Part shown: piece by piece, positions 20,760 to 42,952 of the stretch | Numbering within the stretch: position 1 is the first letter of the stretch | Layout of the letters: each line of letters starts with the position of its first letter | Translations under genes and position numbers: made by a program | NCBI GenBank assembly: GCA_963719515.1 | Contig: CAVRCJ010000018.1 | Coordinates: 1-64,000, forward strand | Length of the DNA stretch: 64,000 nucleotides | DNA from: an uncultured cyanobacterium | GTDB taxonomy: Bacteria; Cyanobacteriota; Cyanobacteriia; CAKZMO01 | Direction: 5' to 3' | The notes under the pieces: model-generated | Told to the model about the DNA's origin: nothing | Database searches by the model: none | What the model saw: the letters and a program-made list of their open reading frames with translations, nothing else

Positions 20760-20886
20760 GTCGGTCTACGTCAGCTCGCACTTGAGCGGCGGGCCTCGTA
20801 GCGCACCGTGAGGAGTAGCCGCGATCGCCGCGTAGAGGCTAGATGGCGCTTTAAGGGCGATCGCCATAGCGGGTGGGGAAGCCCGA

Positions 20887-21261
20887 CTACCGAATGGGCC
20901 GCTGCTGGATGAGGTAGCTGAGCACCTGGCCATGGGTGGGGGTGATGTGGACGCCACGATCGCCAATGGCAATTAGCGGGGTCCACAGCCGCCATTCCAC
21001 GTACTGCAGCACGTGCAGCCGGTTAATGGCTTGGCGCACGCCTTCGGGGGAGCCGATGATGATGTGCCGCAGATGTGAGTCTTCGACTGGTCCTGAAGGG
21101 CCAACGCAACCTGGCGCTGGCGAGGGCTCAATCAGCGTGGGGATAGCCGGGTCCGCTTCTAGAGGGGAGTCTAGCCGCAGCGCAGCGGGTTCCGCAGCGG
21201 GGTTTTGGGGCGCTGCAAACTGTGCCGCCCCTTGGGGCAGCGATGGGTATTGAGTTGTCAT
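20887..21261 (-). CDS. Small cyanobacterial hypothetical protein, module copy 1
   Basis: LRHIIIGSPEGVRQAINRLHVLQYVEWRLWTP conserved across three copies with synonymous changes; GGAG RBS. Confidence 0.8.
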   Translation of the reverse strand: MTTQYPSLPQGAAQFAAPQNPAAEPAALRLDSPLEADPAIPTLIEPSPAPGCVGPSGPVEDSHLRHIIIGSPEGVRQAINRLHVLQYVEWRLWTPLIAIGDRGVHITPTHGQVLSYLIQQRPIR

Positions 21262-21485
21262 GAGGGACTCCATTTTTTGAGTTGAGTTGGAGTCCCCCGC
21301 CGACCGATCATCCTCGACGTTTTTTGGGGGTGGGATGACCAGGTACCATGTACTCCAGGCGTCCCGACAGCCACGTTCTGTCGCGGGGGCTTAGGGGCTG
21401 CATGTTGCGACATCAACATGCGGCTCCGCCCAAGACCGAATCTTTGGGAGACTAGAACCATGGGGACCACGGCTCATAGCTCCCG
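21262..21485 (-). ncRNA. Putative structured leader RNA, module copy 1
   Basis: Conserved stems GCATGTTG/CAACATGC, CGACAG/CTGTCG, GGGACTCC/GGAGTCCC; TTGCCA-17-TATTCT promoter upstream. Confidence 0.6.
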
Positions 21486-21584
21486 AGAATAGATCATTTG
21501 TGGGCGGGTGGCAAGAGGGTAGCGTGATTTTCTGAGATGTGGCGTTGGGCGATCGCTTTGGGGGATTGGCGATCGCGGTTCGGG

Positions 21585-21785
21585 AGAACTGTTGACCTGC
21601 TTAGCAGTTCTAAATTGTTGCTTTGGAGTTCTGTTGAGCTGCTAATGAGTTGAGCAGTGCTACTCTCTAGTTCTGCTGAGCTGCTCAGGAGTTCTAAAAT
21701 GCTGCTCGGGAGTTCTGTTGAGCTGCTTGGGAGTTCTGTAGACCGACTCACCAGTTCTGCTGGCTTGCTTGGGAGTGCTGCTGTG
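21585..21785. repeat. Degenerate 21-nt tandem repeats
   Basis: Recurring AGTTCTG(T/C)TGAGCTGCT unit; minus-strand frame gives ELxSxST heptads; second copy at 28655-28835. Confidence 0.75.
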
Positions 21786-22367
21786 GGGCGATCGCTGCAT
21801 AGAATGGAGCAAGCTCCCGTATATTGAGAGGAAGCAATCTTCAGCCAGGGCAATGATTCTTGCCATAAACCAGGAGAAACTCACTAGCGTAATAAATGTA
21901 GGATTTTCCAGCTCTGAGGCCGTAGCGCCTTACACAAAACGCCTATTTTACTCAATTCAGGAGTTGATAATACTGCAATTTTAGAATGGATAATTGCGAT
22001 ACAATGCCACTACATAGGCACTCTCTGAGAAAGCGATGAATAACGCTCTAGAGTCCATATTTATATGAATAATGTAGAGGCGATAAGAAGATACACAATA
22101 GCTCCGAATTTTTAAAGATAGACACTAAATGTGGTGAATAGTCATGAGAAGAAGGGCATTATCTGTTAGACGTGCTTCGGAAGGCGAGGCATTATTTGGG
22201 AGAATCTAATGTTGAGTGCATAGTTGGCTTGTCGATTTGAAGGATCTTGGAAATGGACAAGCCAGTAGCATTTTTTCGATTCGCTCCGCGACTTGCTCAA
22301 TGTGCTATAAGCAGCTTAGTTGATCCAGTCTAAAATTGAATCCATTTTCAGCTTATAAAAAATTCCT

Positions 22368-23063
22368 ATGGTATATTCACATTCAGCTCTGAGGTTAAAG
22401 CAATTGGAAGACAATATCAGCCATGTCTTACAACTATTGAATGAGTATGAAAAAGAATTACTTGACGAAGACGATCCTAGCAGGATAAGTAGGTATCGTC
22501 GCCGCGTCGAAACGCTGAGGCAGCAAAAGAAAAAATACGAAGAAGAGTTTTTAGATCTACAAGACAAACTGAAAAGCAAATACCCAAATCGAATTCAATC
22601 TCTTTCTAGTCAAATTCAGAATATTGATAACAAGATTGACTCATTTCTAGAAGGTCAAGTAGGACTTTCTCAAGAATTAATGTTACATTTTAGCTCTGAA
22701 GTTCAATGCCTCATTCTACCTCTTGCGCAAAAGCTAAATCAGTCTGAGATTGTAAAATCAAAGAAGCTTTTAGAATCCATAGATAAAAATCTCGTTCCAG
22801 AAGAAAGCATGCGCTTAATATTGTCAGAGATCAGTCAAGCAATAAAAATATCGCAAGACGAAAAACTACATCTTCCGGAAGAAAGCGAGATTGTTGCTGA
22901 AATAATCAATTCGCCAGAAATTGATGCAAAGCACGCGTTAAAGGTCTCAATTCCTATTATTCCTTTCGTTCTCGCATATGAAGGAGAATTAGGATTGGGG
23001 ACTGGAATCAATCTTAAAGAGTTTTGGACAAATTTGAGATCGAAGTTTATCAAGGATAGTTGA
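22368..23063 (+). CDS. Hypothetical protein with N-terminal coiled-coil effector-associated-like domain; first gene of the Lamassu-like operon
   Basis: Low GC; stop overlaps next start; LLDEDDP helical hairpin; C-terminal KVSIPIIPFVLAYEGEL. Confidence 0.75.
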   Translation: MVYSHSALRLKQLEDNISHVLQLLNEYEKELLDEDDPSRISRYRRRVETLRQQKKKYEEEFLDLQDKLKSKYPNRIQSLSSQIQNIDNKIDSFLEGQVGLSQELMLHFSSEVQCLILPLAQKLNQSEIVKSKKLLESIDKNLVPEESMRLILSEISQAIKISQDEKLHLPEESEIVAEIINSPEIDAKHALKVSIPIIPFVLAYEGELGLGTGINLKEFWTNLRSKFIKDS

Positions 23064-23713
23064 GCTTTATGAATTGGCGAGAGGAAAGAAAGCTTGGCCT
23101 TGACAAAAATATGCTTAAAATTGTAAAGCTTCTTGGCACATGCGAACAAAGTTTGATTGATGAGAGCGATCCTCAAGCTAGAAATAAGCTAGAAGCTCAA
23201 ATTTCTAAACTTAGGGAAGACATGAGTAACTGCCAATCAGATTTGGAGAGACATGAGTCAGTATCTTATACTCCATCGGGTTCTGCCTTAGCAATGGCCA
23301 GTATCGCTTATGATGACATTACATTTGTGATTACAGCCCTTTTGAATCAGAGAGCAAATTTTTCAGATGGACAGAGCATTTTTCAACCCACTAACCCCGA
23401 AGAAAAAATGTCTAAGAATTATTTGACACACGAAATTAAATTTGCCCTGGGCATGGGTTTAGCTAAAGCAGGCGAAGTGCGCCATTTTATCGAGCAAAAT
23501 GCAAAGATCTACTTCCCTGATGTTCCAGAAAGACTCAAGGCAGCTTTAAATATCGAATATAAGAGGCTGCTTAGTCAGGGTATCCGAGGAGACGAGCTAT
23601 TCAATCAGCTTTATAGATTTTCGCACCAAAATAGTTCAAATACCTCGCGCCAGCTGGCAGGTTTAGCAGTTTTATGTTACTTCTTTGAAACTTGCGATAT
23701 TTTTGAGCCGTGA
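23060..23713 (+). CDS. Lamassu LmuA-like protein (ABC-three-component C-terminal domain)
   Basis: C-terminal LAVLCYFFETCDIFE motif typical of ABC-3C CTD; no catalytic N-terminal domain recognised. Confidence 0.8.
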   Translation: MSFMNWREERKLGLDKNMLKIVKLLGTCEQSLIDESDPQARNKLEAQISKLREDMSNCQSDLERHESVSYTPSGSALAMASIAYDDITFVITALLNQRANFSDGQSIFQPTNPEEKMSKNYLTHEIKFALGMGLAKAGEVRHFIEQNAKIYFPDVPERLKAALNIEYKRLLSQGIRGDELFNQLYRFSHQNSSNTSRQLAGLAVLCYFFETCDIFEP

Positions 23714-23937
23714 TATTACCTGATAAGTATATTTCAGTAGATAACTCATTACTAGGAGTTGGTGCTATTATCATAAAATATTTGAATCAGCCTCGAACAG
23801 TGACTTCCCTTTGGAGCGATTTATCTAAGATTTCAGAAGTTTCTACCTTTGAGCGATTTGTTCTAGGACTTAATTTGCTTTATATGATTGGGGCTATTGA
23901 ACTAAAGGAAGGCTTACTCCAAAAGCGTCGCCAATGA
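23710..23937 (+). CDS. Lamassu LmuC-like protein (ABC-3C middle component)
   Basis: MILPDKYISVDNSLLGVGA...LNLLYMIGAI; 75 aa; lies between CTD gene and ATPase gene. Confidence 0.85.
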   Translation: MILPDKYISVDNSLLGVGAIIIKYLNQPRTVTSLWSDLSKISEVSTFERFVLGLNLLYMIGAIELKEGLLQKRRQ

Positions 23938-25679
23938 TAAACTCTATATTTGCAAATAAAGACTCCTTTAAGCCAGTTGAATTCGCGCATGGATTCAATG
24001 TAATATTAGCCGATCGCACAGATTATTCTAGTTCTAGAGACTCGCGCAACGGTTTAGGAAAGTCAAGCCTTATTGAAATTATTCATTTTTGCTTGGGCTC
24101 GAGTCCGCGTAAAGGTACAGGACTAAGAGTATCAAGTTTGAGAGGGTGGTCTTTTGGCCTAAATTTGACTCTAGCAGAGCGCGAAATCATTGCTACGAGA
24201 AGTGTTGATGAACCTACGAAAATTTATTTGCAGGGCAATACTACTGATTGGATAATTCAGCCAAGATCGGAAGAAAATCAGAAATTTTATAAGATAGAAG
24301 AATGGAAAAAGCTGCTTGGATACCTAACTTTCGAATTGGCGATTAATGAGGAACGGCAGTTTGCTCCCAATTTTCGCGGTCTAATTTCCTACTTTATTCG
24401 GCCAGGAAAAGACGCATTTTCTACGCCTTTCGAATACTTTAGGAAGCAACCAGGGTGGCAAAAGCAAGTTCTTAATACTTTTTTGCTAGGGCTTGCCTGG
24501 GAAGATGCCAGCGATTTTCAGAAGATAAAAGAAGAAGGAAATCTGTTAGACAGTCTCAAGAAGCTAAAGACCTCTAATCAAGGTATTATCTCGACAAGAA
24601 TCTTAGGGTCACTTGGAGAGTTGGAAGCTGCTCGAGTCAGAATTGAACAGCAACTGCAAAGGCGGCAAGAGGACTTGAGCAATTTTCGCGTACATCCTCA
24701 GTACAAAGAGCTTCAAAGAGAAGCTAATCTCCTTACTTCTGAAATACATGAAATTACAAATGAGAATATATTTAATCGTCAGCTTTTAAGCTTTTATCAG
24801 TCTAGTGTTGAGCAAGAAAGCGAACCAAACAAAAATGATCTGCTTAGACTATATGAAAGCGCCGGCGTTGAGCTTCCAGGTTTAGTTATTCGCCGTCTGG
24901 AAGAAGTAGAGGCTTTTCACCATAGAATCATCGAGAATAGGCGGGGTTTTCTGCTAACGGAAGTTCAGCGTCTAAGGCGAACTATTGCTGATCTAGAGCA
25001 GTTAATTCAAAGAAAAATTGAACAGCGAGCTGAGAGGCTTGAAATTCTACAGACTCACGGTGCTTTAGAAGAATATACTAGGCTCCAAGAATTGTACTTG
25101 GAGACGCGCTCCGACCTCAATGATATTAATAAGCGTATCGATGAGCTGAGAAAAGTAGAAGAGGGAAAAAGTGCTCTTCGGATAGAAAAAGAGCTTTTAC
25201 AGCAAAGAGCACGCCGAGATTATGAAGAGCGCTATGCTCAGGCTGAGCGGGCGATTACACTATTCAATTCAAATTCGCAAGCCCTCTATGATGCTCCAGG
25301 AACGCTTGCGATAAATGTAGGCTCAGGCGGATTTCAATTTAATGTTGAAATTGAAAGAGATCGCAGTGAAGGAATTGGCAAAATGAAGATTTTTTGCTAT
25401 GATCTAATGCTTGCCCAACTATGGGCACAACGGGAAACATCCCCTGGCATTCTTATTCACGATAGTACTATTTTTGATGGCGTCGATGAACGTCAGGTTG
25501 GTCTAGCACTTGAATTGGCAGCTAGAGAATCAGAACGACTTGGCTTCAAATATGCCTGCGCTCTCAACTCAGATATGGTCCCGTTAACAGAATTTTCACC
25601 TGAATTTGATTTCGATTCTTTTATAAGGCTTAGGTTGACTGACGATGAGGGCGGAAACCTTTTTGGCATCGAATTTTGA
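23934..25679 (+). CDS. Lamassu LmuB SMC-like ABC ATPase (DUF2326-type)
   Basis: Walker A SRNGLGKSS, long coiled coil, LIHDSTIFDGVDERQ Walker B/D-loop region. Confidence 0.9.
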   Translation: MINSIFANKDSFKPVEFAHGFNVILADRTDYSSSRDSRNGLGKSSLIEIIHFCLGSSPRKGTGLRVSSLRGWSFGLNLTLAEREIIATRSVDEPTKIYLQGNTTDWIIQPRSEENQKFYKIEEWKKLLGYLTFELAINEERQFAPNFRGLISYFIRPGKDAFSTPFEYFRKQPGWQKQVLNTFLLGLAWEDASDFQKIKEEGNLLDSLKKLKTSNQGIISTRILGSLGELEAARVRIEQQLQRRQEDLSNFRVHPQYKELQREANLLTSEIHEITNENIFNRQLLSFYQSSVEQESEPNKNDLLRLYESAGVELPGLVIRRLEEVEAFHHRIIENRRGFLLTEVQRLRRTIADLEQLIQRKIEQRAERLEILQTHGALEEYTRLQELYLETRSDLNDINKRIDELRKVEEGKSALRIEKELLQQRARRDYEERYAQAERAITLFNSNSQALYDAPGTLAINVGSGGFQFNVEIERDRSEGIGKMKIFCYDLMLAQLWAQRETSPGILIHDSTIFDGVDERQVGLALELAARESERLGFKYACALNSDMVPLTEFSPEFDFDSFIRLRLTDDEGGNLFGIEF

Positions 25680-25706
25680 TGTTGAATTTACGAACTCAGC
25701 ACACGA

Positions 25707-25802
25707 TCTAATGCTCGGTTGACGCGAACGGTATAGGATTTATTCGCACAGGTTTAAGGTTGTCTGTAGACGCCGCACTTCGCCGTGTAAGCTACATTAG
25801 CT
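25707..25802 (+). other. Possible degenerate attC site
   Basis: TCTAATG...CATTAGC complementary ends shortly after the LmuB stop; resembles cyanobacterial attC-like repeats. Confidence 0.35.
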
Positions 25803-25816: not shown

Positions 25817-26995
25817 GTGATGCCAATTCTGATCCTGAGCCTAACAGGCCTTTTCCTCAGCCTATGGATCGTCGTGCCAGCCCCCACCCGCTTCCTGCTG
25901 CCGCTAGGCGTAGGCGCACCCGAAGTCAGCCCCTGGCTAGCTGTAGTAAACGCGATCGCCCTCCTCCTACTGCTCTTCAGCCGCATCCGGGGCACAGCCA
26001 GACTCCTCATCCTCTCTTGTAGCCTGCTAGGGCTGGGGCTAAGCCTGTCGCCCCTGGCCCAATTCCCCGCCGCCAACCGCCAAATCGCCGCCGAAATGCG
26101 CGCCGTGCTGGGGGATGACTACCTCACTGGCATCCCGGCGATCGCCCTTCAGCCCCTGCGCCCCCGCCCCTTAGTCCTAGCAGACGTCTTTCGCGGCATT
26201 GCCCTAGATGAGGTGCGCATCGACCGGGGCATCGAGTTTGCCCAGCCGGATGGGGTCGCTCTGCACCTCAACCTTTACCGACCGCTAGCCCCAGGCCGCA
26301 ATCCCACCGTTGTGGTGATCTACGGCGGCGCATGGCAGAGCGGCAGCCCAGACAGCAGCGATCGCTTCAGCCGCTACATGGCCGCCCAGGGCTACACAGT
26401 GGTCGCGATCGACTATCGCCACGCGCCGGGCTACCGCTTTCCAGCCCAGGAGGAAGATGTGCGCGCTGCCCTAGCCTACATTCAGAGCAACGCCGAGGCG
26501 CTATCGGTAGACCCAGGCCGCGTGGCGCTGCTGGGGCGATCGGCTGGGGCGCAGCTGGCGGCGATCGCAGCCTATGGGGCACCAGAATCACTGCCGGTGC
26601 AGGCGGTGGTCAATTATTACGGGCCGGTGGATTTGACGGCGGGCTACCAGGACCCCCCAACTCCCGACCCAATCGATACTCGCGCCGTGTTGAGAGCATT
26701 TTTGGGCGGTCCCCCCGACGCGGCCCCTGAGCTTTACCGGCAGGCGTCCCCAATCAGCTATGTTGAACCGGGTTTACCGCCAACGCTGCTGGTCTATGCC
26801 GGACGCGACCATGTGGTGCAGGCTGAGTATGGTCGTCAGCTCTATGAGGGGCTGCGGGCTGCGGGCAATCAGGTGGTTTGGCTGGAGGTTCCCTGGGCTG
26901 AACATGCTTTTGATGCAGTGTTTAATGGCGTTAGTAACCAACTGGCGCTGTACTATACGGAGCGCTTTGTTGCCTGGGCGCTGAAGTCGGCCTAA
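25817..26995 (+). CDS. Membrane-anchored alpha/beta hydrolase (esterase/lipase)
   Basis: YGGAW oxyanion motif, GRSAG nucleophile motif, AEHAFD. Confidence 0.88.
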   Translation: MMPILILSLTGLFLSLWIVVPAPTRFLLPLGVGAPEVSPWLAVVNAIALLLLLFSRIRGTARLLILSCSLLGLGLSLSPLAQFPAANRQIAAEMRAVLGDDYLTGIPAIALQPLRPRPLVLADVFRGIALDEVRIDRGIEFAQPDGVALHLNLYRPLAPGRNPTVVVIYGGAWQSGSPDSSDRFSRYMAAQGYTVVAIDYRHAPGYRFPAQEEDVRAALAYIQSNAEALSVDPGRVALLGRSAGAQLAAIAAYGAPESLPVQAVVNYYGPVDLTAGYQDPPTPDPIDTRAVLRAFLGGPPDAAPELYRQASPISYVEPGLPPTLLVYAGRDHVVQAEYGRQLYEGLRAAGNQVVWLEVPWAEHAFDAVFNGVSNQLALYYTERFVAWALKSA

Positions 26996-27724: not shown

Positions 27725-27963
27725 GCGCCGCTGCTGTCCCTGGCGGAATTTGGATTTCTAGCTCATAAAACCAATCACAAAGCAGCTAGCGCTTGCTTTC
27801 CCTTGACGATCTGTCTCTCGTCTTAAAAGCAGGGGCCAACTCGTTCAGCGGACTAAGCAGAGCGCACCATGAAACGTCGACAGGCTTTAGGCAAAATGGC
27901 GATCGCCGCGTAGAGGCTAGATGTTGCCTTAAGGGCGATCGCCATAGCGGGTGGGGAGCCCGA

Positions 27964-28338
27964 CTACCGCATGGGCCGCTGCTGGATGAGGTAGCTGAGC
28001 ACCTGGCCATGGGTGGGGGTGATGTGGACGCCTTTTTCACCGATGGCAATCAGCGGGGTCCACAGCCGCCACTCGACGTACTGCAGCACGTGCAGCCGGT
28101 TGATGGCCTGGCGAACGCCTTCGGGGGAGCCAATGATGATGTGCCTCAGGTGTGAGTCTTCGACTGGCCCTGAAGGGCCAACACACCCCGGTGCGGGGGA
28201 GGGCTCAATCAGCGTGGGGATAGCGGGCTCGGCTTCCATGGGGGAATCTAGCCGCAGCGCAGCGGGTTCCGCAGCGGGGTTTTGGGGCGCTGCGAACTGT
28301 GCCGCCTCTTGGGGCAGCGAATGATATTGAGTTGTCAT
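27964..28338 (-). CDS. Small hypothetical protein, module copy 2
   Basis: Paralog of 20887-21261. Confidence 0.8.
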   Translation of the reverse strand: MTTQYHSLPQEAAQFAAPQNPAAEPAALRLDSPMEAEPAIPTLIEPSPAPGCVGPSGPVEDSHLRHIIIGSPEGVRQAINRLHVLQYVEWRLWTPLIAIGEKGVHITPTHGQVLSYLIQQRPMR

Positions 28339-28560
28339 GAGGGACTCCGTTTTTGAGTTAATTGGAGTCCCCCGCCGACCGGACATCCGCGACGTTTTTG
28401 GTTTTGGGATGGCCGGGTAATATCATTACTCCAGGCCGTTCCCGACAGCCACTGTCTGTCGTGGGGGCTTAGGGGCCGCATGTTGGCATCAACAGCATGC
28501 GGCTCCGCCCAGACCGAATCTTTGGGAGACTAGAACCATGGATAACGGCTCATAGCTCCA
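28339..28560 (-). ncRNA. Putative structured leader RNA, module copy 2
   Basis: Same stems as copy 1 with different loops; TTGCCA-18-TACCTT promoter upstream. Confidence 0.6.
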
Positions 28561-28928
28561 TAAGGTAGGACATTTGTGCGCGGGTTGGCAAGAGGGTGGC
28601 GCGGTTTTCTGTTGAGGGTGGCGATCGCTTTGGGGGATTGGCGATCGCGGCTTGAGAGATCTGTTGACCTGCTCAGCAGTTCTAAATTGTTGCTTTGGAG
28701 TTCTGTTGAGCTGCTAACGAGTTGAGCGGGGCTGCTCGCTAGTTCTGCTGACCTGCTCAGGAGTTCTAAAATGCTGCTTAGGAGTTCTGTAGACCGACTC
28801 ACCAGCTCTGCTGGCTTGCTCTGGAGTTCTGCTGTGGGGCGATCGCTGCACGTAATGAAGCAACCTCGCGCAGATGAATAGGAATTGGCCTTTGGTTAGC
28901 AATTACGAAGACTCAAGCCCTTGAGAAT

Positions 28929-29128
28929 TTAATTATCCAGAGGGCTACGCACTCCACGCCCACCCCGATTTAGGACATGCGTGTAAATCATTGGTGGCGC
29001 TTGTCATGGAAGAGGATGAATTCGCAGATGTAGTGAATGTAAGATTTCTCGGTTTTGAGGCTGTAGTGCTTTGTACGAAGCACCTGCTTTACCTGGCCGA
29101 GCAGGCGAGGAGGCTGTGATGACGACAT
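28929..29128 (-). pseudogene. intI: Integron integrase with large internal deletion
   Basis: N-terminus MSSSQPPRLLGQVKQVLRTKHYSLKTEKSYIHYICEFILFHDKRH joined out of frame to C-terminus MIYTHVLNRGGRGVRSPLDN*. Confidence 0.92.
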
Positions 29129-29134
29129 CGCTAA

Positions 29135-29365
29135 TCACGGGATAACACCGATAAATGGGGTGTTGTCTGACAAAAGTGACGGATAATACCCTATAAATCA
29201 TGGTTATCAGACAAGAGCGACGGATAACGCCCTAAATTTCCGGAGTTGGCCGTCAGATGCGGCGGATGATTGCGGAAAGTAGGGTGTTATTCGCTAGATA
29301 TGCCTGATAAGATCTGGGAGGCAGGGTATTATCCGCCAGATCTGACGTTGAATATATAGTTAGAA
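29135..29365 (+). promoter_or_regulatory. attI-like region ending in core site GTTAGAA
   Basis: Lies between the intI start and the cassette; GTTRRRY-like core at 29359-29365; repeated GGATAAYRCCCT motifs. Confidence 0.7.
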
Positions 29366-29406
29366 ATCAAAGGCAGAACCCGTGCAATCATGAGGGAATA
29401 GACAAA

Positions 29407-29622: not shown

Positions 29623-30618
29623 ATGAAAAAAAGAGCACCTAGAAACCGCACGTTGACCTTGGAAGACGATGAAAAAGACACGCTTCTTAGGGAAACTATC
29701 ACACTTCAATCTGCTTGTGAGGCAGAGCAAATAGAAGGAAAAGTTATAAATCAGGATATTTTTTCTTGTATTGAATACTTGCCAGGCAATTTTATTGATC
29801 TTCTTGTAATTGATCCACCATACAATCTCAATAAAAAATTTGGTGAAAGCAAATTCTCTAAGAAATCAGAAGATTCTTATCAGGAATGGCTTGAATCATG
29901 GATACCAAATCTCAAGAGATGTCTGAAGAAAGACGCCTCTTTATATGTATGTTGTGATTGGCAATCTTCAAAGCCAGTTCAAGCCGTGCTTGAACGATAT
30001 TTTACAATCCGCAATCGCATCACATGGGAAAGAGAAAAAGGAAGGGGCGCAAAAACAAATTGGAAGAATTGTTCAGAAGACATTTGGTTTTGTACTATGT
30101 CAAATGATTACTATTTTGACGTCGAGGCGGTAAAACTTAAGAGGAAAGTAATTGCGCCTTATCGACATTCGTCAGGAAAACCGAAGGATTGGGAGGAAAC
30201 ACCTAAAGGAAATTACCGTCTAACACACCCCTCGAATTTATGGACGGATATATCTATTCCATTCTGGTCAATGCCGGAAAACACAGATCATCCTACTCAA
30301 AAGCCAGAAAAATTAATCGCAAAGTTAATTCTTGCAAGCTCTAGGGAGGGTGATTTTGTCTTTGACCCGTTTCTCGGTTCTGGCACGACATGCGTAGTTT
30401 CAAAAAAATTAGGTAGGCGATTCTCTGGCATAGAGATTGAATCTGAATATTGCGCTATGACAGTAAAACGACTTGCTCGCGCCGACTCTGACAACATCAT
30501 TCAAGGCTACCATGATGGTTATTTTTGGGAACGCAACAGCCTTGCCAAGCAAAAACAGAGCAAGAAAAAAAATAGTCAAGGTCAGGATGTTGTGATGGGA
30601 CTGTTTGATGAGCAATAA
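29623..30618 (+). CDS. N4-C/N6-A DNA methyltransferase (beta class)
   Basis: DPPY precedes HPTQKP and DPFLGSGTT. Confidence 0.92.
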   Translation: MKKRAPRNRTLTLEDDEKDTLLRETITLQSACEAEQIEGKVINQDIFSCIEYLPGNFIDLLVIDPPYNLNKKFGESKFSKKSEDSYQEWLESWIPNLKRCLKKDASLYVCCDWQSSKPVQAVLERYFTIRNRITWEREKGRGAKTNWKNCSEDIWFCTMSNDYYFDVEAVKLKRKVIAPYRHSSGKPKDWEETPKGNYRLTHPSNLWTDISIPFWSMPENTDHPTQKPEKLIAKLILASSREGDFVFDPFLGSGTTCVVSKKLGRRFSGIEIESEYCAMTVKRLARADSDNIIQGYHDGYFWERNSLAKQKQSKKKNSQGQDVVMGLFDEQ

Positions 30619-31765
30619 AATAAATGAGCTATTAGCGTTTATCGAAGAGCATAATGGTATTAACGATAAATCGAAATTATGTAAGCTTGTGGCGGATAAA
30701 TTTTCATTAACGAAAGACCGCTCTGTTTTTTATTGCAAAGAGTTTGCCATACGTTATAGCTCATCAAACAGCCAGAGCTTTTCAAATACAGTGCTTTCCT
30801 TATCCAAACTACAAAAGGTCGATGATCGCCCGTTTTTAGTTTGCCTAGTTGCCCCTAGTAGAAATCATATCCTTTTATCAAACACTACGTTCTTGAAAAA
30901 GATAAGCCACAGCTCTCAAGAGCTTCGTGAGAACAATATTCGTGGCAGCTTCAACGGCTCCGACATTATGCGAGAATTTGAAGGTATCGAGAACAAGCCA
31001 GAAAATATTGAACGGTTATTTAATATACACGCAGAAATCGGTTTTGAAGGCAACTTGGTACGCTTGGTTGAGGCAACGAACAATATTAGTCCTTCTGGAA
31101 CGAAATTTGCGCCAACTAATACGCAAATAGCCACTATATTAGATGCTCCACGCAGGGCCGTTGGTTTTGTTGGTAGTGATGATTTGCGGACGCTCAAGGA
31201 TGAATTGGATGTAAAGGTTGATCAATATAAGAACGAAATCTTGCTGGCTGGGCTGATAGAGAATGTGAATGTACGTGGGAGGATAATAGAATATCTGATT
31301 GCTGGTGAAGATGAGAGACTAAGGCAAGAAATTATAGATGCACTTTTGCAGAAATCTAACGGAATACCACAGTTTAAAACAGAAAATACTCTTGGCGATT
31401 ATTCGAGGGAGTTTGAAGAATATTTTACTGAGACAGATGTAAAGACAAAAATCATGGTTCTTAATTCAAACCCGAAAGCGTACAACCTTGATAAGGTTCT
31501 TGAGTTTTTGGCGACGAAAAAATCGGTGTTTATGTTTTATTTTGTAGGGATTGCACCAACAAAGATTGTTAACACAGTTCTAGTATCAATGTTTCAAGAA
31601 GACCTATTGAATTCAACTCTACTGCTAAAACACTGGTCAGGAAGAAATTCTAGGGGTGTTAGTCAGTTTGAGGGAAAAACAATTGGTAGGTTGATACTTT
31701 CACCGAAAAGTCACATCGACAATGAGAAAGCAACTAGCTTCCTTCGTAGGTTATTAGAGTTGTGA
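30605..31765 (+). CDS. Putative type II restriction endonuclease
   Basis: Overlaps the MTase gene; GD...TDVK PD-(D/E)xK-like motif; low GC. Confidence 0.65.
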   Translation: MMSNKINELLAFIEEHNGINDKSKLCKLVADKFSLTKDRSVFYCKEFAIRYSSSNSQSFSNTVLSLSKLQKVDDRPFLVCLVAPSRNHILLSNTTFLKKISHSSQELRENNIRGSFNGSDIMREFEGIENKPENIERLFNIHAEIGFEGNLVRLVEATNNISPSGTKFAPTNTQIATILDAPRRAVGFVGSDDLRTLKDELDVKVDQYKNEILLAGLIENVNVRGRIIEYLIAGEDERLRQEIIDALLQKSNGIPQFKTENTLGDYSREFEEYFTETDVKTKIMVLNSNPKAYNLDKVLEFLATKKSVFMFYFVGIAPTKIVNTVLVSMFQEDLLNSTLLLKHWSGRNSRGVSQFEGKTIGRLILSPKSHIDNEKATSFLRRLLEL

Positions 31766-31771: not shown

Positions 31772-31843
31772 TTCTAACAAGGCGCTGCAACGGACGGCAA
31801 TTCCGCTGCGCTCCATTGCCACCGGTGAGCTTGGTCGCTATGA
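31772..31843 (+). other. Integron attC site
   Basis: TTCTAACAAGGCGCTGCAACGGACGGCAATTCCGCTGCGCTCCATTGCCACCGGTGAGCTTGGTCG; R'' TTCTAAC is the exact complement of GTTAGAA at the cassette start; distal core degenerate (GCT). Confidence 0.88.
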
Positions 31844-32267
31844 GGTTGATACAGTGCGATCGCAGATCTTGTAGAGTACATTGCTGAACATCAAACACAC
31901 CATTTTGCTGGACACCCCAACATCGCTCTTTCACCTGCACTCACACACCCGACTATCGAAGATCTAAAACTGCATACCCATGCCCAGAATTTGAGCTAAA
32001 CATGCAATGGGAGCAATAGCGCGTTTGCTCACCGCAACCCACCCCAAAAGAACCGCGATCGCACTATAAGTAGGCGACCTAAGCCTAGCGACATCAGCTC
32101 GCACTGAAGCGGCGCACCATAACAAATGAGAATTGCGGGCCGGGCTGCCCCCAATTAAAGTTCCGTAGCCCTAGTCACAAAGGATGCCAATGGTTTGAAC
32201 TACTGTTGGCATGCAATCGACAGAACGGCAGCCGCTGCGCCAAGAGGGAGCGGTAGCTAAAGGGGGA

Positions 32268-33902: not shown

Positions 33903-33967
33903 GCGATCGCCGTGTAGAGGCTAGATGTCGCTCTAAGGGCGATCGCCATAGCGGGTGGGTCGTCCGA

Positions 33968-34315
33968 CTACCGAATGGGCCGCTGCTGGATGAGGTAGCT
34001 GAGCACCTGACCTTGGGCGGGGGTGATGTGGACGCCGCGATCGCCGATGGCAATCAGCGGGGTCCACAGCCGCCACTCGACGTACTGCAGCACGTGCAGC
34101 CGGTTGATGGCTTGGCGAACGCCTTCGGGGGAGCCGATGATGATGTGCCTCAAGTGCTCGCAGCCGGGGGCTGGGGAGGGCTCAAGCAGCGTGGGGATAG
34201 CGGGTTCGGCTTCCATGGGGGAATCTAGCCGCAGCGCAGCGGGTTCCGCAGCGGGGTTTTGGGGCGCTGCGAACTGTGCCGCCTCTTGGGGCAGCGAATG
34301 ATATTGAGTTGTCAT
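33968..34315 (-). CDS. Small hypothetical protein, module copy 3
   Basis: Paralog with an in-frame 27-nt deletion in the Pro-rich linker. Confidence 0.8.
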   Translation of the reverse strand: MTTQYHSLPQEAAQFAAPQNPAAEPAALRLDSPMEAEPAIPTLLEPSPAPGCEHLRHIIIGSPEGVRQAINRLHVLQYVEWRLWTPLIAIGDRGVHITPAQGQVLSYLIQQRPIR

Positions 34316-34540
34316 GAGGGACTCCGTTTTTGAGTTAATTGGAGTCCCCCGCCGACCGGACATCCGCGACGTTTTTGGTTTTGGGATGGCCGGGTAATAT
34401 CATTACTCCAGGCCGTTCCCGACAGCCACTATCTGTCGTGGGGGCTTAGGGGCTGCATGTTGTCATCAGCAACATGCGGCTCCGCCCAGACCGAATCTTT
34501 GGGAGACTAGAACCATGGGGACCACGGCTCATAGCTCCAT
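34316..34540 (-). ncRNA. Putative structured leader RNA, module copy 3
   Basis: Same stems as copies 1 and 2. Confidence 0.6.
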
Positions 34541-34892
34541 AAGGTAGGACATTTGTGCGTGGGTTGGCAAGAGGGCAGCGCGGTTTTCTGTTGAGGGTGG
34601 CGATCGCTTTGGGGAGGGTGGCGATCGCAGCTTGGGAGAGCTATTGGCCAGCTTAGCAGTTCTGAGATCTTGCTTTTTTCAAGCGCTCATCGACTGATCA
34701 CTGAAGAAATTTATTCGCCAAACCGGGGTGAATGCCTAGAGTTTGGGCTGAATATGCAATGAGAGTGATGGTGCAATCGCTTATCGAAATGCGCACTACA
34801 AGATCCTCGATTGCACTTATTTTATGAGTCAGGGCATACTTATAAGGCCCCTACTGTAGTCTAGCGACTCAGCCAACTTAGAATCTGTCAAC

Positions 34893-35642
34893 ATGCAGCA
34901 ATCCGAGTCAAAAATTGCTTTGCTGATCGATGCAGACAATGCTCCCGCATCGAAAATTGAGTCAATTCTATCTGAAATTGCGAAATATGGAGTTGCCAAC
35001 ATCCGCAGAGCTTATGGCAACTGGAAAAGCTCAAATTTGCAATCGTGGGAGGAGTGCTTACATGAATACGCTATCCGCCCAGTCCAACAGTTCGATTACA
35101 CCAAAGGTAAAAATGCTACTGATGCATCAATGATTATTGATGCGATGGACTTACTTTACACGCAACAGCTAGATGCCTTTGCTATTGTGTCTAGCGATTG
35201 CGACTTCACTCCTCTAGTGATGAGGATTTTGACAAATGGCTTGAAAGCCTATGGATTTGGTGAGAAGAAGACTCCTCTAGCCTTTGTCAATGCTTGCTCA
35301 ACATTTCTATATCTTGAAACAATTAATCAGACTATAGCTTCTGAAGAGGAATCAAGGTCTGCTAAAAGCGCCAGAAAAACCAGTGAAGAGCTGAAGCAAG
35401 ATGCAAAGTTAATGAATTTATTGCGGAGCGCTATTTCTAGTACTCTAGATGATGATGGTTGGTCAAGCTTAGCAGTCCTTGGTGGACATATTAAGAATCA
35501 GGCATCTTTCGATTCGCGCAACTATGGGTACGCCAAATTGAGTGGCCTTTTTGAGGCTATTGATCTATTCGAGATTCGGAGAAAAAATAAAGCAGTCCAT
35601 GTGAGAAATAAGCAAAAGGGAAATGTCAGCTCAAAGAAATAG
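34893..35642 (+). CDS. NYN domain protein with C-terminal OST-HTH/LOTUS domain
   Basis: LLIDADN, GKNATD, SSDCDFTPL, FDSRNYGYAKLSGL motifs; low GC. Confidence 0.88.
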   Translation: MQQSESKIALLIDADNAPASKIESILSEIAKYGVANIRRAYGNWKSSNLQSWEECLHEYAIRPVQQFDYTKGKNATDASMIIDAMDLLYTQQLDAFAIVSSDCDFTPLVMRILTNGLKAYGFGEKKTPLAFVNACSTFLYLETINQTIASEEESRSAKSARKTSEELKQDAKLMNLLRSAISSTLDDDGWSSLAVLGGHIKNQASFDSRNYGYAKLSGLFEAIDLFEIRRKNKAVHVRNKQKGNVSSKK

Positions 35643-38401: not shown

Positions 38402-38590
38402 GGCTACAACTCGTTGGGCGGGCTGACCCATGGGATATACCGAGGCGGCCCTGCCGGTGGGGGTGTCGTTTGTGGCTGAAGCCTATAGCGAGCCGACGCT
38501 GCTGGGGCTGGCCTATGCCTACGAGCAGACTACCCAGGTGCGGCAAGCGCCGACGACAACCCCGCCCCTTTCGGGTGAGCAGATTGACTA
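38402..38590 (+). pseudogene. Internally deleted duplicate of the amidase gene
   Basis: 38402-38427 matches 32778-32803 and 38427-38590 matches 33738-33901. Confidence 0.88.
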
Positions 38591-39264: not shown

Positions 39265-39434
39265 GCGCCATCGGCTCCCTTCGCGCCGACAACTGCCGCG
39301 ACAGCCTCCACGTCCTGGGTTACGCCCGCCCCGACAAGTGGTCCTGGCCCGTGCCCCTGGTCAACACCGACATCATTCGCACCGTCACCTCCGGGGAGAT
39401 GATGCGAATCCTCACCAAGCGAGTGCCGCGCTAG
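39265..39434 (+). pseudogene. 3' remnant of the small-ORF family seen at 42599-42952
   Basis: ...NCRDSLHVLGYARPDKWSWPVPLVNTDIIRTVTSGEMMRILTKRV*. Confidence 0.85.
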
Positions 39435-39605
39435 ACCCGATAAGGGCACAACCTGCGTTTGGAGGAAGGGCTAGGGATGGAGCACCCGGTGCGCTGAACA
39501 GATACTGCGCCCACCACCTGCCCCAGAGCGATCGCCCCTACCCCAAAAACGCCATAGAGTAGGATCTAAGCAGAGATTCGACCTGAAATTTACAGAGGTC
39601 ACACC

Positions 39606-40157: not shown

Positions 40158-40234
40158 AGCAAAGAACCCAATAGCCGCTGCTCCTGGCTCAACCCAGACC
40201 CAGACCACCGAAGCCTATTTGGACCGAAGTATCG

Positions 40235-40919
40235 CTACCCCAGCGCCATCGCGATCGCCGCCTCAGCGTGGATCACCGTCGTATCAAGCAGCGGCACCTC
40301 CACATGCTGCTGCTGCACCAGCGTACCAATCTCCGTACAGCCCGCAATCACCCCTTCGGCCCCCGCTTGCCGCAGCGCCTCAATCACGCGCAAGTACCCC
40401 TGCCGCGACTCGTCCCGCACCACCCCCAGGCAAAGCTCATCGTAAATCGCCCGGTGCACCAAGTCGCCATCGCCCTCCGAGGGCACCACAACGCTGATGC
40501 CGTAGCCCCCAAAGCGGCCCTTGTAAAAATCCTGCTCCATGGTAAACCGCGTCCCCAGCAGCCCCACGGTGGTGAGTCCCGCCTGCCGGACCCGCTCAGC
40601 CGTCGCGTCTGCAATGTGCAAAATAGGAATGCCGATGCCGCGCTCAATTTGGGGCGCGACCTTGTGCATCGTGTTGGTGCAGATCAGCAAAAAATCGGCC
40701 CCCGCCGCCTCAATGCCCTGGGCCGCTTGGGTGAGGCGATCGCCCGCCTGCTCCCACTGGCCGCTGTGCTGCAGGGCCTCGATTTCCTGAAAGTCTACGC
40801 TCACCATGGCAATTTTTGCCGAATGCAGCCCGCCGAGCCGCTGCTTAATGCCCTGGTTAATGAGCTGGTAATACAGCCCTGTGCTCTCCCAACTCATGCC
40901 GCCCAATAGTCCAATTGTT
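40235..40919 (-). pseudogene. Aspartate/glutamate racemase whose first codons are separated by a tnpB element
   Basis: GGMSWEST, CTNTMH, GCTEI motifs; GTGAA (42290-42286) plus AACAATTGGA restores MKTIG. Confidence 0.85.
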
Positions 40920-42285
40920 ATGAACTACACCTAACCGCTACGCTGAGCTAGGTGTTTCGTGCGCTTCATTGCCCCTAGTTGCCTCATGCTTCCGCAGTTG
41001 GTAGAGCTAGGCGGCTCAGCGCTTGCGAGGGAAGATTCCTGCCCCCGTGCCCAGATCAGATTGACCTGAGCAGCATTGGTATCGCGGTCTTCGGTATGGC
41101 CGCAGTGTTGGCATCGGTGGATACGGTCGCTCAACGTCTTGGGCGTCAGCTCCCAGCACTGAGCGCAGCGCTGGGACGGCTTGAGCTGCCGGGTAGGAGA
41201 CTCCAGATAGAATCCGCCCGCCTCAGCTTCCTTGTAGGACAGCAGCGGTCTAACCCTTGCAAACCCCACCGACAGGATTGAGCGATTGAGACCGGCCTTT
41301 TGACGTTTCCGCTTGCCTTTGCGGGCCTTGCGGGTCATGCCCTTGACGTTAAGCTGCTCTCCGGCGACTAGGCTATTACGGCTAACTATGTTGCTGGTGA
41401 GCTTGTGCAACCAATCCGCTCGCTGGTTGGCTACCTTGCGTTGAATCTTGGAAACTTTGCGTCTGGCTTTGCGCCAGCGGTTAGAGGCTTTGACGCCCTG
41501 CTTGCGGTTGGGCCTGCGTTTGCGGCGCAGCACCTTGCAGGCCTGCTTAACCGCGACATCGCCCGCTTTGATGAACTCAGGCTTTTCCTCTTTGGTGCCG
41601 TCTGAGAACGACACCGCATTAGTGCAGCCTAAGTCTATCCCGACAGCACCGCCAGCGGTTTGGCGCTCTGGGCTGCACGCCACGGTGATGGAGGCGTACC
41701 ACTTCCCTTCACTTGGCCGGTAGACAATCGTGCAGGTTGTCGGTCTCCCCCAGGTACGAGCTTGTCCTCGCATCCGAATCTTGCCCAAGTTTGATAGCTG
41801 CAGGCAACCATTGATGCCATCGCTTAGCGCCTTCCAGCCAGAACCGCACGGATAGGTCCAGCCAGAGAACAGCCGTATCGACTTGAACTTGGGATACTTC
41901 CCTAGCCCTTTGAAGAACCGCTGAAACGCAAAGTCTACTCGCTTGACCGTAGCCTGCAAAGCATGACTGCCCAAAGCTTTGTACTCTGGCCAGCACTCCT
42001 TGAATGCAGGTAGCAGGTTTTGCTGGTCGATGTAGCCCACAGACTGCCCGTGCTGTTTGTAGCTGGTGCGGCGGTGCTCTATGCAGGCGTTGTACAGGTA
42101 GGCATGAAGACGCCGCCACTCGAACAGCATCGCCCCTTGCTGGGTCGTCGGGTAGAGCCTATACGTTACACGGCGTGTTGCCATAACTCGATGTATGCAC
42201 TGAGACAATCGTACTATGTTCGCTACGCTCACGCGCTATCCTTCCCTAATCCGCTTCGCTGAGATTAGGGACTGCCGCGATTCTG
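40920..42285 (-). mobile_element. IS200/IS605-family tnpB-only element (IS1341-like)
   Basis: Left-end hairpin CCCTAATC/GATTAGGG; right end TTCAT; no TSD; precise removal restores the racemase start. Confidence 0.9.
40931..42184 (-). CDS. tnpB: RNA-guided endonuclease TnpB
   Basis: YRLYP, GIDLG, GEQL, CxxC-CxxC Zn finger, DRDTNAA; RuvC D-E-D intact. Confidence 0.95.
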   Translation of the reverse strand: MATRRVTYRLYPTTQQGAMLFEWRRLHAYLYNACIEHRRTSYKQHGQSVGYIDQQNLLPAFKECWPEYKALGSHALQATVKRVDFAFQRFFKGLGKYPKFKSIRLFSGWTYPCGSGWKALSDGINGCLQLSNLGKIRMRGQARTWGRPTTCTIVYRPSEGKWYASITVACSPERQTAGGAVGIDLGCTNAVSFSDGTKEEKPEFIKAGDVAVKQACKVLRRKRRPNRKQGVKASNRWRKARRKVSKIQRKVANQRADWLHKLTSNIVSRNSLVAGEQLNVKGMTRKARKGKRKRQKAGLNRSILSVGFARVRPLLSYKEAEAGGFYLESPTRQLKPSQRCAQCWELTPKTLSDRIHRCQHCGHTEDRDTNAAQVNLIWARGQESSLASAEPPSSTNCGSMRQLGAMKRTKHLAQRSG

Positions 42286-42379
42286 TTCACGCCAGCGCTC
42301 CCATTTTCTCTATTGTTAACTCAGCCCGCGAAATCTCGCTAGTACGGTTGTAAACCGCCTCAACATCCGCTACACTCCC

Positions 42380-42598
42380 TGCCCATGGGCACAAAACGCG
42401 CCCTAACCCAGACGCCCAAAACTTTAGCGCGCCCCCTGGCAGTGCCGACAACACTAGCCAGAGAGCATAACCGCAGCGTTGAGCTAAGCAACGCGACGGC
42501 TATCGAGATTTTATCTTGTGGTAGCTGTCCCGTCCTTCACCGCGTGGATGGCTGAATGACTTGGGCGTCTTTCCTAAACCCACAAAAGGTAAGACACA
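42380..42598 (+). ncRNA. Putative structured leader RNA of divergent module member 4
   Basis: TTGTAA-17-TACACT promoter; AGACGCCCAA (42410) pairs with TTGGGCGTCT (42561); internal hairpins. Confidence 0.55.
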
Positions 42599-42952
42599 AT
42601 GACATACGACTCCCAGCCCCGCCGCAGCGAGGCACAGACCGGTCATGATGACGAGCGCCGTCTGCGCCAGGAGCTGTTCCCCGGCAGCAGCAGCCTTTGG
42701 GCCGCCCCCCTGCCTGAGAGCCCCGCCCCAGAGCCAGAACTCCCGCCCGACGACCAGCGCCTGCGGCTGATCGCCATCGGCTCCTTGCACGCCATCAACA
42801 ACTGCCGCGACAGCCTCCACGCCCTCGGCTACGCCCGCCCCGATGAATGGTCTTGGCCCGTGCCCCTGGTCAACAGCGACATCATCCGCAGCCTCACCCC
42901 CGGCGAGATGATGCGCATTCTCACAAAGCAGGTGCCGCCGCCGGGACGGTAG
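42599..42952 (+). CDS. Small hypothetical protein, divergent member of the module family
   Basis: LRLIAIGSLHAINNCRDSLHALGYARPDEWS aligns with LRHIIIGSPEGVRQAINRLHVLQYVEWRLWT. Confidence 0.75.
   Translation: MTYDSQPRRSEAQTGHDDERRLRQELFPGSSSLWAAPLPESPAPEPELPPDDQRLRLIAIGSLHAINNCRDSLHALGYARPDEWSWPVPLVNSDIIRSLTPGEMMRILTKQVPPPGR

Follow-up and report, generated by a model that had tools for sequence, protein, structure and literature searches.

The window, a stretch of 64,000 nucleotides from an uncultured cyanobacterium (contig CAVRCJ010000018.1), carries four copies of a module that encodes a small protein behind a long RNA leader. Copy 1 occupies 20821..21833 on the minus strand and consists of a heptad-repeat spacer, a sense promoter (21486..21514; -35 TTGCCA, 17 nt, -10 TATTCT), the leader, an ORF of 124 aa (20887..21261) and a 3' tail ending in a HIP1 octamer (20821-20828). 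Copy 2 (27899..28884) and copy 3 (33903..34676) lie on the same strand, likewise with HIP1 at the 3' end (27899-27906 in copy 2); their promoter motifs are found at 28591-28562 and 34570-34541, and their ORFs encode 124 aa (27964..28338) and, with nine codons fewer, 115 aa (33968..34315). Copy 4, from a second subfamily, runs on the plus strand (42348..42952), where a promoter at 42348-42376 precedes the leader and a 117-aa ORF (42599-42952), with HIP1 at 42963. Two plus-strand remnants of copy-4-type ORFs, both without a leader, are present at 19885..20000 (with an internal stop) and 39266..39434 (the C-terminal half). Some 55 nt separate the upstream side of copy 4 from the end of an IS605 tnpB element, which belongs to a separate repeat family.

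The first-pass annotation had recorded ORFs of 115-124 aa, the divergent member with its two remnants, and sigma70-like promoters, all of which we recover; the promoters of all four copies read TTG-N17/18-TAnnnT. Its three near-identical minus-strand units do align with one another, but at 84-90% identity they are not near-identical. The ORFs of this trio differ by 12-25 synonymous changes per pair, and a dN/dS of 0.11-0.25 agrees with its view that the reading frame is maintained. The repeat family proposed there is real, although some 70 further copies elsewhere in the genome had been overlooked. The 5.3-Mb genome holds 78 loci of the small protein, 66 of them with a full leader, and 96 of 251 cyanobacterial genomes contain relatives. 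The one family member compared with phage records had no match there, and no published description of the module family was found in a search that covered mostly the main text of papers outside subscription.

The mRNA leader is 215-240 nt long. Double-sided changes are seen in 24 of 45 base pairs of the leader, a level reached by 0 of 500 shuffles, with counts inflated by three related subfamilies; this bears out the earlier impression of conserved stems with variable loops. On the sense strand, stem P1 has 52 G-U against 5 A-C cells and the inner long-range helix 49 against 2, placing the wobbles of both on the mRNA. No covariation was seen in the outer long-range helix, and the base of P4 pairs in only 77% of cells. 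No described RNA family in Rfam was matched, either by the window at gathering score or by 12 loci at E up to 1. A coupled leader peptide was considered and rejected (frames 14/13/12, none conserved).

A second, predicted promoter, overlooked in the first-pass annotation, is embedded in the leader on its opposite strand. In 52 of 59 copies the strongest antisense -10 hexamer anywhere in the leader sits at 55-62% of leader length. It scores at least 6 bits in 66% of copies versus 6% of shuffles; an A lies 7 nt past it in 42/59 copies and a purine 8 nt past it in 59/59. The RNA predicted to start here has a core of about 75 nt that folds into two hairpins in 56/56 copies, with a folding mean z of -5.2 on the antisense strand versus -3.1 on the sense strand. 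In the window, the predicted -10 element and two-hairpin core are located on the plus strand in copy 1 (21344..21349, TACCAT; 21356..21428), copy 2 (28421-28426; ~28433-28505) and copy 3 (34398-34403; ~34410-34482), and on the minus strand in copy 4 (42513-42508, TAAAAT; ~42501-42429). Since the sense-strand cells of P2 are mostly A-C rather than G-U (67 versus 12), this stem wobbles on the antisense strand; by their wobble pairs, one stem belongs to the antisense RNA and others to the mRNA. On the upstream side, the region covered by the predicted antisense RNA stops roughly 95 nt short of the start codon. For this RNA no clear terminator was seen. Under a lenient rule, 13 of 66 copies were flagged as damaged, all hit on the ORF or sense-promoter side with the antisense hexamer kept; among the 11 ORFs called broken, three (L012, L054 and L061) probably use a GTG start or follow a longer leader and are intact.

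At the sequence level, the -10 motif, start spacing and strand-specific wobble indicate a complementary antisense RNA gene with its own promoter, as expected of a type I system, and antisense control of the module gene is highly probable. The idea of a self-contained RNA-regulated unit fits these data, the regulator being a predicted cis-encoded antisense RNA with its own promoter within the leader. Start-site tables from dRNA-seq (Anabaena, Nodularia and others) may already contain such RNAs.

The loops differ in every copy: none of 3080 non-cognate pairs has both loop words in common, and in five close pairs loop divergence is 57% versus 28% at synonymous sites. In a folding model, blocking the antisense-covered part of the leader makes the start region costlier to open in 42 of 52 copies and cheaper in 3; blocking just the 72-nt core has a weaker effect (up in 29/48, down in 4), and shuffling the linker raises the cost in 44/48. 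The modelling suggests a refolding switch in which antisense binding flips the leader and the ribosome site becomes hidden, and predicts that the free mRNA is more open. Window copies 1-3 have a broken outer long-range helix, and their modelled start is rather closed even without antisense RNA (10-11.5 kcal/mol). Two alternative folds together with an anti-Shine-Dalgarno strand would also suit a riboswitch-like leader that senses a ligand or protein, the antisense promoter motif then being incidental. We consider this very improbable, given that the loops are hypervariable rather than conserved, that it is the opposite strand on which the longest stem pairs best, and that the leader is restricted to this gene (69 of 73 leader matches precede it and the remaining four are fragments).

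The module protein has 79-158 residues and is soluble, with a hydropathy maximum over 19 residues of 1.2 (55 proteins) and no membrane helix; its predicted structure is an alpha/beta model, and modelling predicts a dimer. Classical type I toxins (Hok, Ldr, Ibs, AapA), as described in the available text of PMC2887945, have fewer than 60 residues and a hydrophobic membrane helix, and the module protein departs from them in length, hydropathy and fold. A core dN/dS of 0.19 (18 independent pairs) indicates purifying rather than neutral evolution. No family match was obtained in Pfam, PHROGs, NCBIfam or PDB sequences, and no likeness to known toxins. The ESM Atlas returned matches only to unnamed cyanobacterial clusters. 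Fold searches with the core (best Z 4.5) and with a tandem fusion that occurs naturally (best Z 5.5) stayed at background, a level that is evidence neither for a new fold nor for the absence of kin. The top Foldseek rows are latent MinE (E 0.77 and 1.5, TM 0.42, rmsd 4.4-4.8); MinE is absent from the VIA-align rows, where the best Z is 4.5. A DUF1737-like pattern with one usable member was noticed in the viral fold list. A 2131-aa match, P0151, proved to be a repeat-protein artefact, and a supposed link to Anabaena CRISPR repeat-associated small proteins found no support in the accessible text of 10.1101/2020.04.14.041012 or in the literature search. In other genomes, 10 of 27 loci that look leaderless and have a Pfam match place the protein under a divergently encoded RHH or HTH repressor, so that with an antisense leader here and a divergent repressor there it is under negative control in either format. 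A LexA-type box is not enriched, with 2 of 64 promoters within one mismatch versus 2.9% of shuffles.

Beside copy 2 lie probable integron remains that the first-pass annotation had passed over. An internally deleted integron integrase (28932..29104, minus strand) retains the first ~38 and last ~20 codons in different frames (TIGR02249 positions 2-39 and 295-314; PF13495 above cut-off). A putative attI region on the plus strand (29148..29369; intI-upstream profile E 4e-12; core GTTAGAA at 29359-29365) resembles those of intact cyanobacterial integrons. The plus-strand cassette cargo (29623..31765) comprises an N6/N4 DNA methyltransferase and an overlapping 386-aa gene that matches no family and, judged by position, may be its restriction partner. 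An attC-like site with a degenerate right core follows (31773..31844, plus strand; HIP1 at 31856); it was read by eye and missed by a strict scan and by an 8-sequence profile. Flanked by an intI remnant, attI and attC-like sites, this cargo resembles integrons and integrase-less cassette arrays. Records exist of integrons in cyanobacteria and of toxin-antitoxin modules in Vibrio arrays (available text of PMC4889954). A weak, degraded remnant of an integrase N-terminus is also found at 21850..21963 on the minus strand (tblastn E 0.069; nhmmer E 0.0015).

This association extends to other genomes. A module lies within 1.5 kb of the intI 3' end at 11 of 34 cyanobacterial loci, compared with 0/19 on the 5' side and 0/33 non-cyanobacterial loci, and the intI-linked modules come from several subfamilies (single clade rejected, p-AU 3e-16). 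The module is not a cassette, as it sits behind intI and outside the array; the literature searched held no earlier report of a gene at this position. In the present genome, a leader-type module follows three of five attI-like sites, and no intact intI was found; relatives carry an intact intI before the module. Plasmid relatives are placed beside tyrosine recombinases or between parG and rep.

Both the intI-linked and the plasmid placements favour the main rival to a toxin, namely an establishment factor that helps incoming DNA integrate or survive, for instance if it assists recombination, modulates the integron integrase or relaxes restriction. No resident antisense RNA would match the loops of an incoming copy, so a short burst of protein would follow until its own antisense RNA accumulates; copy-specific loops fit this scheme equally well, and the more open free mRNA predicted is in its favour. 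We nevertheless judge it unlikely. Most copies have no nearby recombinase, with three attI-linked leader-type modules set against 66 full modules, lasting purifying selection on old copies is less well explained by a one-off role on arrival, and no excisionase or anti-restriction fold likeness appeared among the fold-search matches listed.

The neighbourhood of the module is asymmetric. By hand classification, the first gene on the promoter side is of defence or toxin-antitoxin type at 23 of 60 loci versus 5 of 60 on the 3' side (p 1.7e-4), leaving 37/60 loci with a non-defence gene there. Promoter-side sequence is low in GC for 29% of 66 copies, compared with 1.5% on the 3' side and a background of 3.7%. 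In copy 1, the promoter-side low-GC cargo (22368..25679, plus strand) consists of ABC-three-component-like genes (CTD10, MC6, DUF2326/AAA), followed by a degenerate attC-like hairpin read by eye (~25706-25801). On the promoter side of copy 3 lies a plus-strand NYN-LOTUS gene (34893..35642) and then HIP1 at 35649.

The HIP1 octamers at the 3' junctions, likewise missed earlier, mark the exact point at which similarity between close copies stops in the window trio and one further pair, while 5' junctions vary. In addition, 37 of 66 copies have a HIP1 no more than 100 nt upstream of their promoter, versus 13% of control genes. Together with the several copies behind integron integrases, these junctions narrow what had been called an unknown route of spread. 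An insertion sequence or MITE was rejected, because the ORF matches no transposase family, in line with the absence of a transposase reported before, and the junctions are at HIP1 on the 3' side and variable on the 5' side. When six sites were compared within the genus, the module was missing from the flank of 13 of 15 informative relatives. Such turnover and the HIP1 junctions are what one would expect of a selfish element that spreads by illegitimate recombination at HIP1 and piles up in tolerant spots shared with defence genes. This is less probable still than an establishment factor, as mere co-accumulation would not yield a one-sided cargo link, and as a unit without its own mobility gene would, at a dN/dS of 0.19, still require a toxic or useful protein.

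The reading we prefer, with a probability of about 0.55, is a type I toxin-antitoxin-like unit that works in the manner of AapA/IsoA with a new kind of protein. It is argued for by the two promoter motifs, covarying strand-assigned stems, unique loops, purifying selection and the defence and integron link, and more indirectly by damage that falls on the protein side of the module and by the negative control of the protein in either format; the earlier suggestions of a type I toxin-antitoxin-like module and of island maintenance fit the opposite-strand promoter and these neighbours. The sigma70-type promoter would yield an mRNA whose 5' linker, in the free leader, forms long-range pairs with a portion of the anti-Shine-Dalgarno strand, leaving the hairpin at the ribosome site looser. 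The opposite-strand promoter would produce the two-hairpin antisense RNA, which would contact two matching mRNA hairpins loop-to-loop, so that the leader refolds and the ribosome site is hidden; because loops differ in every copy, each antisense RNA would silence its own mRNA only. On loss of the locus or a stop in transcription, the antisense RNA would decay first and the soluble, dimeric protein would then inhibit growth, favouring the allele with its neighbouring defence genes or integron cassettes. Here we infer transcription, differential decay, and toxicity and its target; that the protein acts as a toxin seems somewhat more probable than not. Against the toxin-antitoxin reading, cargo could be deleted without loss of the module because the module sits at the cargo edge. 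The lack of a membrane helix and of toxin likeness, the many copies with no defence gene next to them, and the rather closed modelled start of window copies 1-3 also count against it.

Several known systems share parts of this design. In IncB/IncI (RNAI), R1 (CopA) and pT181, an upstream antisense RNA blocks an activating long-range pairing, and loops define specificity groups. The module resembles such copy-number control in setting an upstream antisense RNA against a long-range pairing and in loop-set specificity, but its gene is no replication initiator and it has no conserved coupled leader peptide. In phage P4, the CI RNA represses and so guards a small gene, kil. An RNA repressor over a small gene is common to the module, P4 CI-kil and P1 c4-icd-ant, but the closer analogy drawn in the first-pass annotation fails: C4 shares both operon and strand with the gene it targets, with Icd inhibiting cell division (available text of PMC8198154), whereas the module RNA is on the opposite strand, and no C4-type match was among the Rfam results above.

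The AapA/IsoA family of Helicobacter pylori, in the part of PMC5416894 available, comprises five chromosomal loci whose cis-antisense RNA contacts the 5' leader through two-hairpin kissing loops; IsoA loops confer own-mRNA specificity and control acts via mRNA folding. AapA1 itself has just 30 residues; 3' processing activates its mRNA, and duplex formation covers the ribosome site (PMC5416894). The module shares the multi-copy format and, as predicted, the two-hairpin cis-antisense RNA, loop specificity and folding-based control, and differs in its 79-158-aa soluble protein, an antisense RNA placed upstream that would act by refolding, and ~70 loci versus five. SymE/SymR and RalR/RalA are type I systems with soluble toxins (PMC4147584, as far as its available text goes), and the module parallels them in that its protein, some 100 residues long, lacks a membrane helix and would be held off by an antisense RNA. 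No sequence or fold match to either system was among the matches listed; SymR overlaps the ribosome site (PMC4147584), whereas the module antisense RNA lies upstream, and LexA-type boxes are not enriched.

If the toxin reading is true, the module would be a large RNA-antitoxin family in a phylum for which none was found described in the literature searched, with a soluble effector of a new kind; set against the five AapA/IsoA loci, its insulated copies per genome would be about ten times more numerous. It would also explain how polyploid, transformable cyanobacteria retain costly defence genes and integron cassettes. More doubtful, and offered tentatively, is a genome-wide address system in filamentous cyanobacteria, in which dozens of insulated antisense switches, each tied to a defence islet or integron, would let arriving defence DNA express an effector that resident copies cannot silence. 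This effector might help integration or be toxic, perhaps as a MinE-like inhibitor of division, and new loop sequences would be the price of founding a new islet. As a defence-islet marker, the module makes its unannotated promoter-side neighbours candidates for anti-phage genes. With 56 antisense-leader pairs that occur naturally and are apparently orthogonal, the family offers material for testing kissing-loop specificity and gene-control tools for cyanobacteria.

The repeat module is real. Three minus-strand units in the window (20821-21833, 27899-28884 and 33903-34676; copies 1-3) share 84-90% mutual identity in a self-comparison, which also identifies two fragments (19885-19999 and 39266-39429) with about 85% identity to a fourth unit at 42348-42952 (copy 4). 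The layout given in the first-pass annotation for these units stands, but its term "near-identical" is too strong for the 84-90% identity of the trio. The open reading frames of the four units encode 124, 124, 115 and 117 amino acids. Across the 5.28-Mb, 21-contig assembly, an iterated protein profile yields 83 domain matches at 78 loci. A leader profile built from 54 of these loci gives 73 matches, of which 69 precede family protein loci and four are fragments; nine protein loci have no leader. A TTG-N16/19-TAnnnT promoter is found at the same position in 64 of the 66 full-length loci, and the frame is open from its ATG in 55 of 66 under a strict rule. The cyanobacterial identity of the genome is backed by Yfr1 and 6S RNA matches, the corresponding genes lying at 6671-6736 and 48283-48466 in the window. 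We also note two short two-copy repeats that are unrelated to the module and lie wholly within the window (33738-33901 with 38427-38590, and 13791-13963 with 20138-20310; 91-92% identical).

In 42 main-class leaders, RNAalifold places hairpin P1 at the 5' end, hairpins P2 and P3 in the centre and hairpin P6 over the ribosome site, and it joins a 5' linker to the base of the anti-Shine-Dalgarno strand by a long-range helix. Two-sided changes occur in 24 of the 45 pairs of this structure, a count inflated by the relatedness of the copies and reached by none of 500 shuffles. The outer long-range helix shows no covariation among these 45 pairs, and the base of P4 is only 77% paired. An AnnnTA loop on the mRNA strand becomes a -10 element when read on the opposite strand. 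This hexamer, at 55-62% of leader length, is the top antisense hexamer of the whole leader in 52 of 59 tested copies and reaches at least 6 bits in 66% of copies versus 6% of shuffles. In 42 of 59 copies the base 7 nt behind it is A, and the base 8 nt behind it is a purine in all 59; no -35 element is apparent in the leaders tested. Of 66 copies, 13 were classed as damaged, although three of these are probably intact; by a lenient rule, every one of the 13 retains an antisense hexamer.

Wobble pairs divide between the two strands. On the mRNA, P1 shows 52 G-U versus 5 A-C cells and the inner long-range helix 49 versus 2. P2 shows the reverse, with 67 A-C versus 12 G-U cells on the mRNA strand and hence wobble on the antisense RNA, as does the base of the other antisense hairpin (63 A-C versus 15 G-U on the mRNA, the former being G-U on the antisense RNA). 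The same split is present in the second leader class. Furthermore, the predicted 75-nt antisense core folds into two hairpins in 56 of 56 copies, a set that leaves out three copies where the search window picked the wrong hexamer, and folds better than the sense strand in 51. An automatic rule recovers the same antisense layout in 27 of 64 rows, which represent 23 distinct loci and come almost entirely from other genomes; the remaining rows are cut, belong to the leaderless type or escaped the rule. We put the probability that the leader contains an antisense gene that controls the module at roughly 0.9. That this leader is instead a riboswitch appears highly improbable.

Folding models outline how such antisense control could operate. 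Opening the start region costs on average 6.9 kcal/mol in the free leader versus 10.7 kcal/mol when the antisense-covered part is kept unpaired; this blocking raises the cost in 42 of 52 copies and lowers it in three, and blocking the 72-nt core alone raises it in 29 of 48 and lowers it in four. Shuffling the 16-nt linker raises the cost in 44 of 48 copies. Taken together, these results suggest that the linker is an activator, and the antisense RNA would cancel its activating effect without touching the ribosome site. Copies 1-3 of the window have some of the tightest start regions even when free (10-11.5 kcal/mol). Comparison of the leaders revealed no conserved coupled leader peptide.

Every one of the 56 copies has its own loop pair: among 3080 non-cognate pairs, both 7-nt loop words are shared by none and one word by 32. 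In five close pairs, loops differ at 57% of positions versus 28% at synonymous sites, a contrast that indels may inflate. Over 18 independent pairs, dN/dS is 0.19 for the core of the protein and rises to 0.34 for its proline-rich N-terminus. It seems improbable that the module is a purely selfish unit. As predicted, the module shares with AapA/IsoA (PMC5416894) the same RNA logic of two antisense hairpins, kissing loops and copy-specific repression. It combines this logic with a protein unlike classical type I toxins in size and hydrophobicity (PMC2887945). Soluble type I toxins do exist (PMC4147584), and we slightly favor a toxin role for the family protein.

The first-pass annotation had proposed structure prediction and a Foldseek search; neither this nor other fold searches returned a significant match. 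The AlphaFold2 model has a strand-helix-loop-strand core (mean pLDDT 83), and the family protein has no membrane helix. The top Foldseek rows, below significance, are latent MinE (E 0.77, TM 0.42). A two-copy model scores 0.62 versus 0.01 for the best control; 20 of 30 solved pairs score that high, compared with 1 of 23 single chains. Contact agreement between runs is at least 87%, and pLDDT at least 76. This modeling supports a homodimer through the first strands and helices. Latent MinE pairs via its first strands, and this likeness in predicted pairing offers a MinE-like division-inhibitor role as a lead, though a long shot at best.

In other genomes, leaderless proteins face a divergent RHH or HTH gene in 10 of 27 loci with a Pfam match and lie downstream of a DUF7662-HTH gene in 4 of 27. 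At L308, L310, L108 and L104, a DUF7662-HTH_3 regulator precedes the family member, which is possibly a settled chromosomal copy; in two of the genomes it lies between mscS and hisG. Two leaderless members in the present genome, L079 (C14:59440-60009) and L078 (C5:122426-122683), each have a divergent XRE-type HTH gene opposite; L079 lies directly at an attI-like site. A 75-column tree nests 13 repressor-type rows among antisense-type rows with moderate support, so RNA control seems, from sequence, to have been replaced by a protein repressor in some lineages.

Relatives occur in 56 of 151 cyanobacterial genomes, and in 96 of 251 with a second profile added; copy numbers per genome are often lower bounds ("at least"). 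A protein scan gives 690 matches among 1.84 billion representatives, and the 150 listed are all small proteins except for one repeat artefact. No description of the family appears in the titles and abstract openings searched or in the passages of the papers cited here. With one family member as query, ten plasmid records and no phage record matched. It is unlikely that the protein is an establishment factor made in a burst on arrival rather than a toxin. On plasmid D of Trichormus variabilis ATCC 29413 (L280), a member lies between parG and a replication gene and the leader layout is absent.

On the 3' side, similarity between close copies breaks off precisely at a HIP1 octamer in the window trio and one further pair; leaving aside one self-overlap, these are the five junction rows that run beyond the stop. 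Upstream of the promoter, 37 of 66 copies have a HIP1 site no more than 100 nt away, versus 13% of 2369 control genes; after the stop, 23 of 66 have one, versus 15%. Such sites also bracket copies 2 and 3 together with their cargo. PMC4390886 describes some evidence that recombination, both site-specific and illegitimate, takes place at HIP1. Six sites followed into four same-genus genomes retrieved 20 loci, five ending at a contig edge; the 15 informative loci include one orthologous module, one leader remnant and 13 with neither in the 0.75-1.5 kb flank examined, and gene order is mostly changed. From the HIP1 junctions and this site turnover, we infer that the module spreads via recombination by the host at HIP1 and carries no mobility gene itself.

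Copy 2 has both ends of an integron integrase (intI) upstream, together with an attI region resembling that of intact cyanobacterial integrons, the methyltransferase pair and an attC identified by eye, which is degenerate. Copy 1 and one other copy are also preceded by intI remnants, though fainter ones. The genome has five attI-like sites; the module comes after three of them and a leaderless relative after a fourth. In a survey of 80 GTDB intI loci, 34 cyanobacterial ones were evaluable at the intI 3' end, and 11 of these have the module within 1.5 kb, 10 of them in the same direction. The corresponding counts are 0 of 19 for the 5' side and 0 of 33 for non-cyanobacterial loci (p 0.004 and 0.0004, respectively, with related loci not being independent). 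Cultured strains with intI-linked copies include Nodosilinea sp. FACHB-131 and Leptolyngbya sp. CCNP1308. Additional cases are convergent or co-directional. A single clade of intI-linked proteins is rejected (p-AU 3e-16), indicating that the pairing arose more than once. Most copies in this genome have no integron, and integrons are thus one kind of cargo and not a general cause. The intI form with both ends kept and the middle lost (window 28932-29104) recurs in several related genomes (L002:760-1004, L092:258-424, L191:947-1404 and L196:1371-1773), which suggests non-autonomous mini-integrons. Tandem repeats with a 21-nt rhythm and 84-nt period (21589-21779 and 28657-28834) separate intI remnant and module promoter; in one frame they give serine/leucine heptads, and at C1:256233 this frame forms a fusion with the N-terminus of intI.

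G+C content drops below 50% across the 2 kb on the promoter side in 29% of 66 copies; the corresponding fraction is 1.5% for the 3' side and 3.7% for random windows. Of the 62 full copies outside the window, 60 were classified by their first flanking genes: a gene of defence or toxin-antitoxin type comes first on the promoter side in 23 and on the 3' side in 5 (p 1.7e-4). Classes were assigned by hand, and TPR-only, IS and unnamed genes were placed outside the defence class. The types include Uma2, PIN, HEPN/MNT, XisH, Mrr, methyltransferase, TIR/STAND and Roc-COR, among others; first 3' genes are otherwise often housekeeping (psbA, ilvD, purU). Reaction-centre genes of psbA type directly adjoin four modules (L137, L143, L162 and L165), three on the 3' side. 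Promoter sides in the window carry ABC-3C-like genes, a methyltransferase pair, an NYN gene and IS605 tnpB. The IS605-type tnpB element (40920-42292) ends just upstream of copy 4 and has 99.9-100% identical copies on other contigs. Low-GC promoter-side genes at L129, L130, L139, L148 and L113, mostly unannotated, are candidate new defence genes. Finally, an esterase end and DUF1824 gene beside copy 2 (26663-27760) have an 81-83% identical paralogue at C13:46578-47544, also with a module nearby, and one of the two regions may be foreign DNA that arrived with its module.
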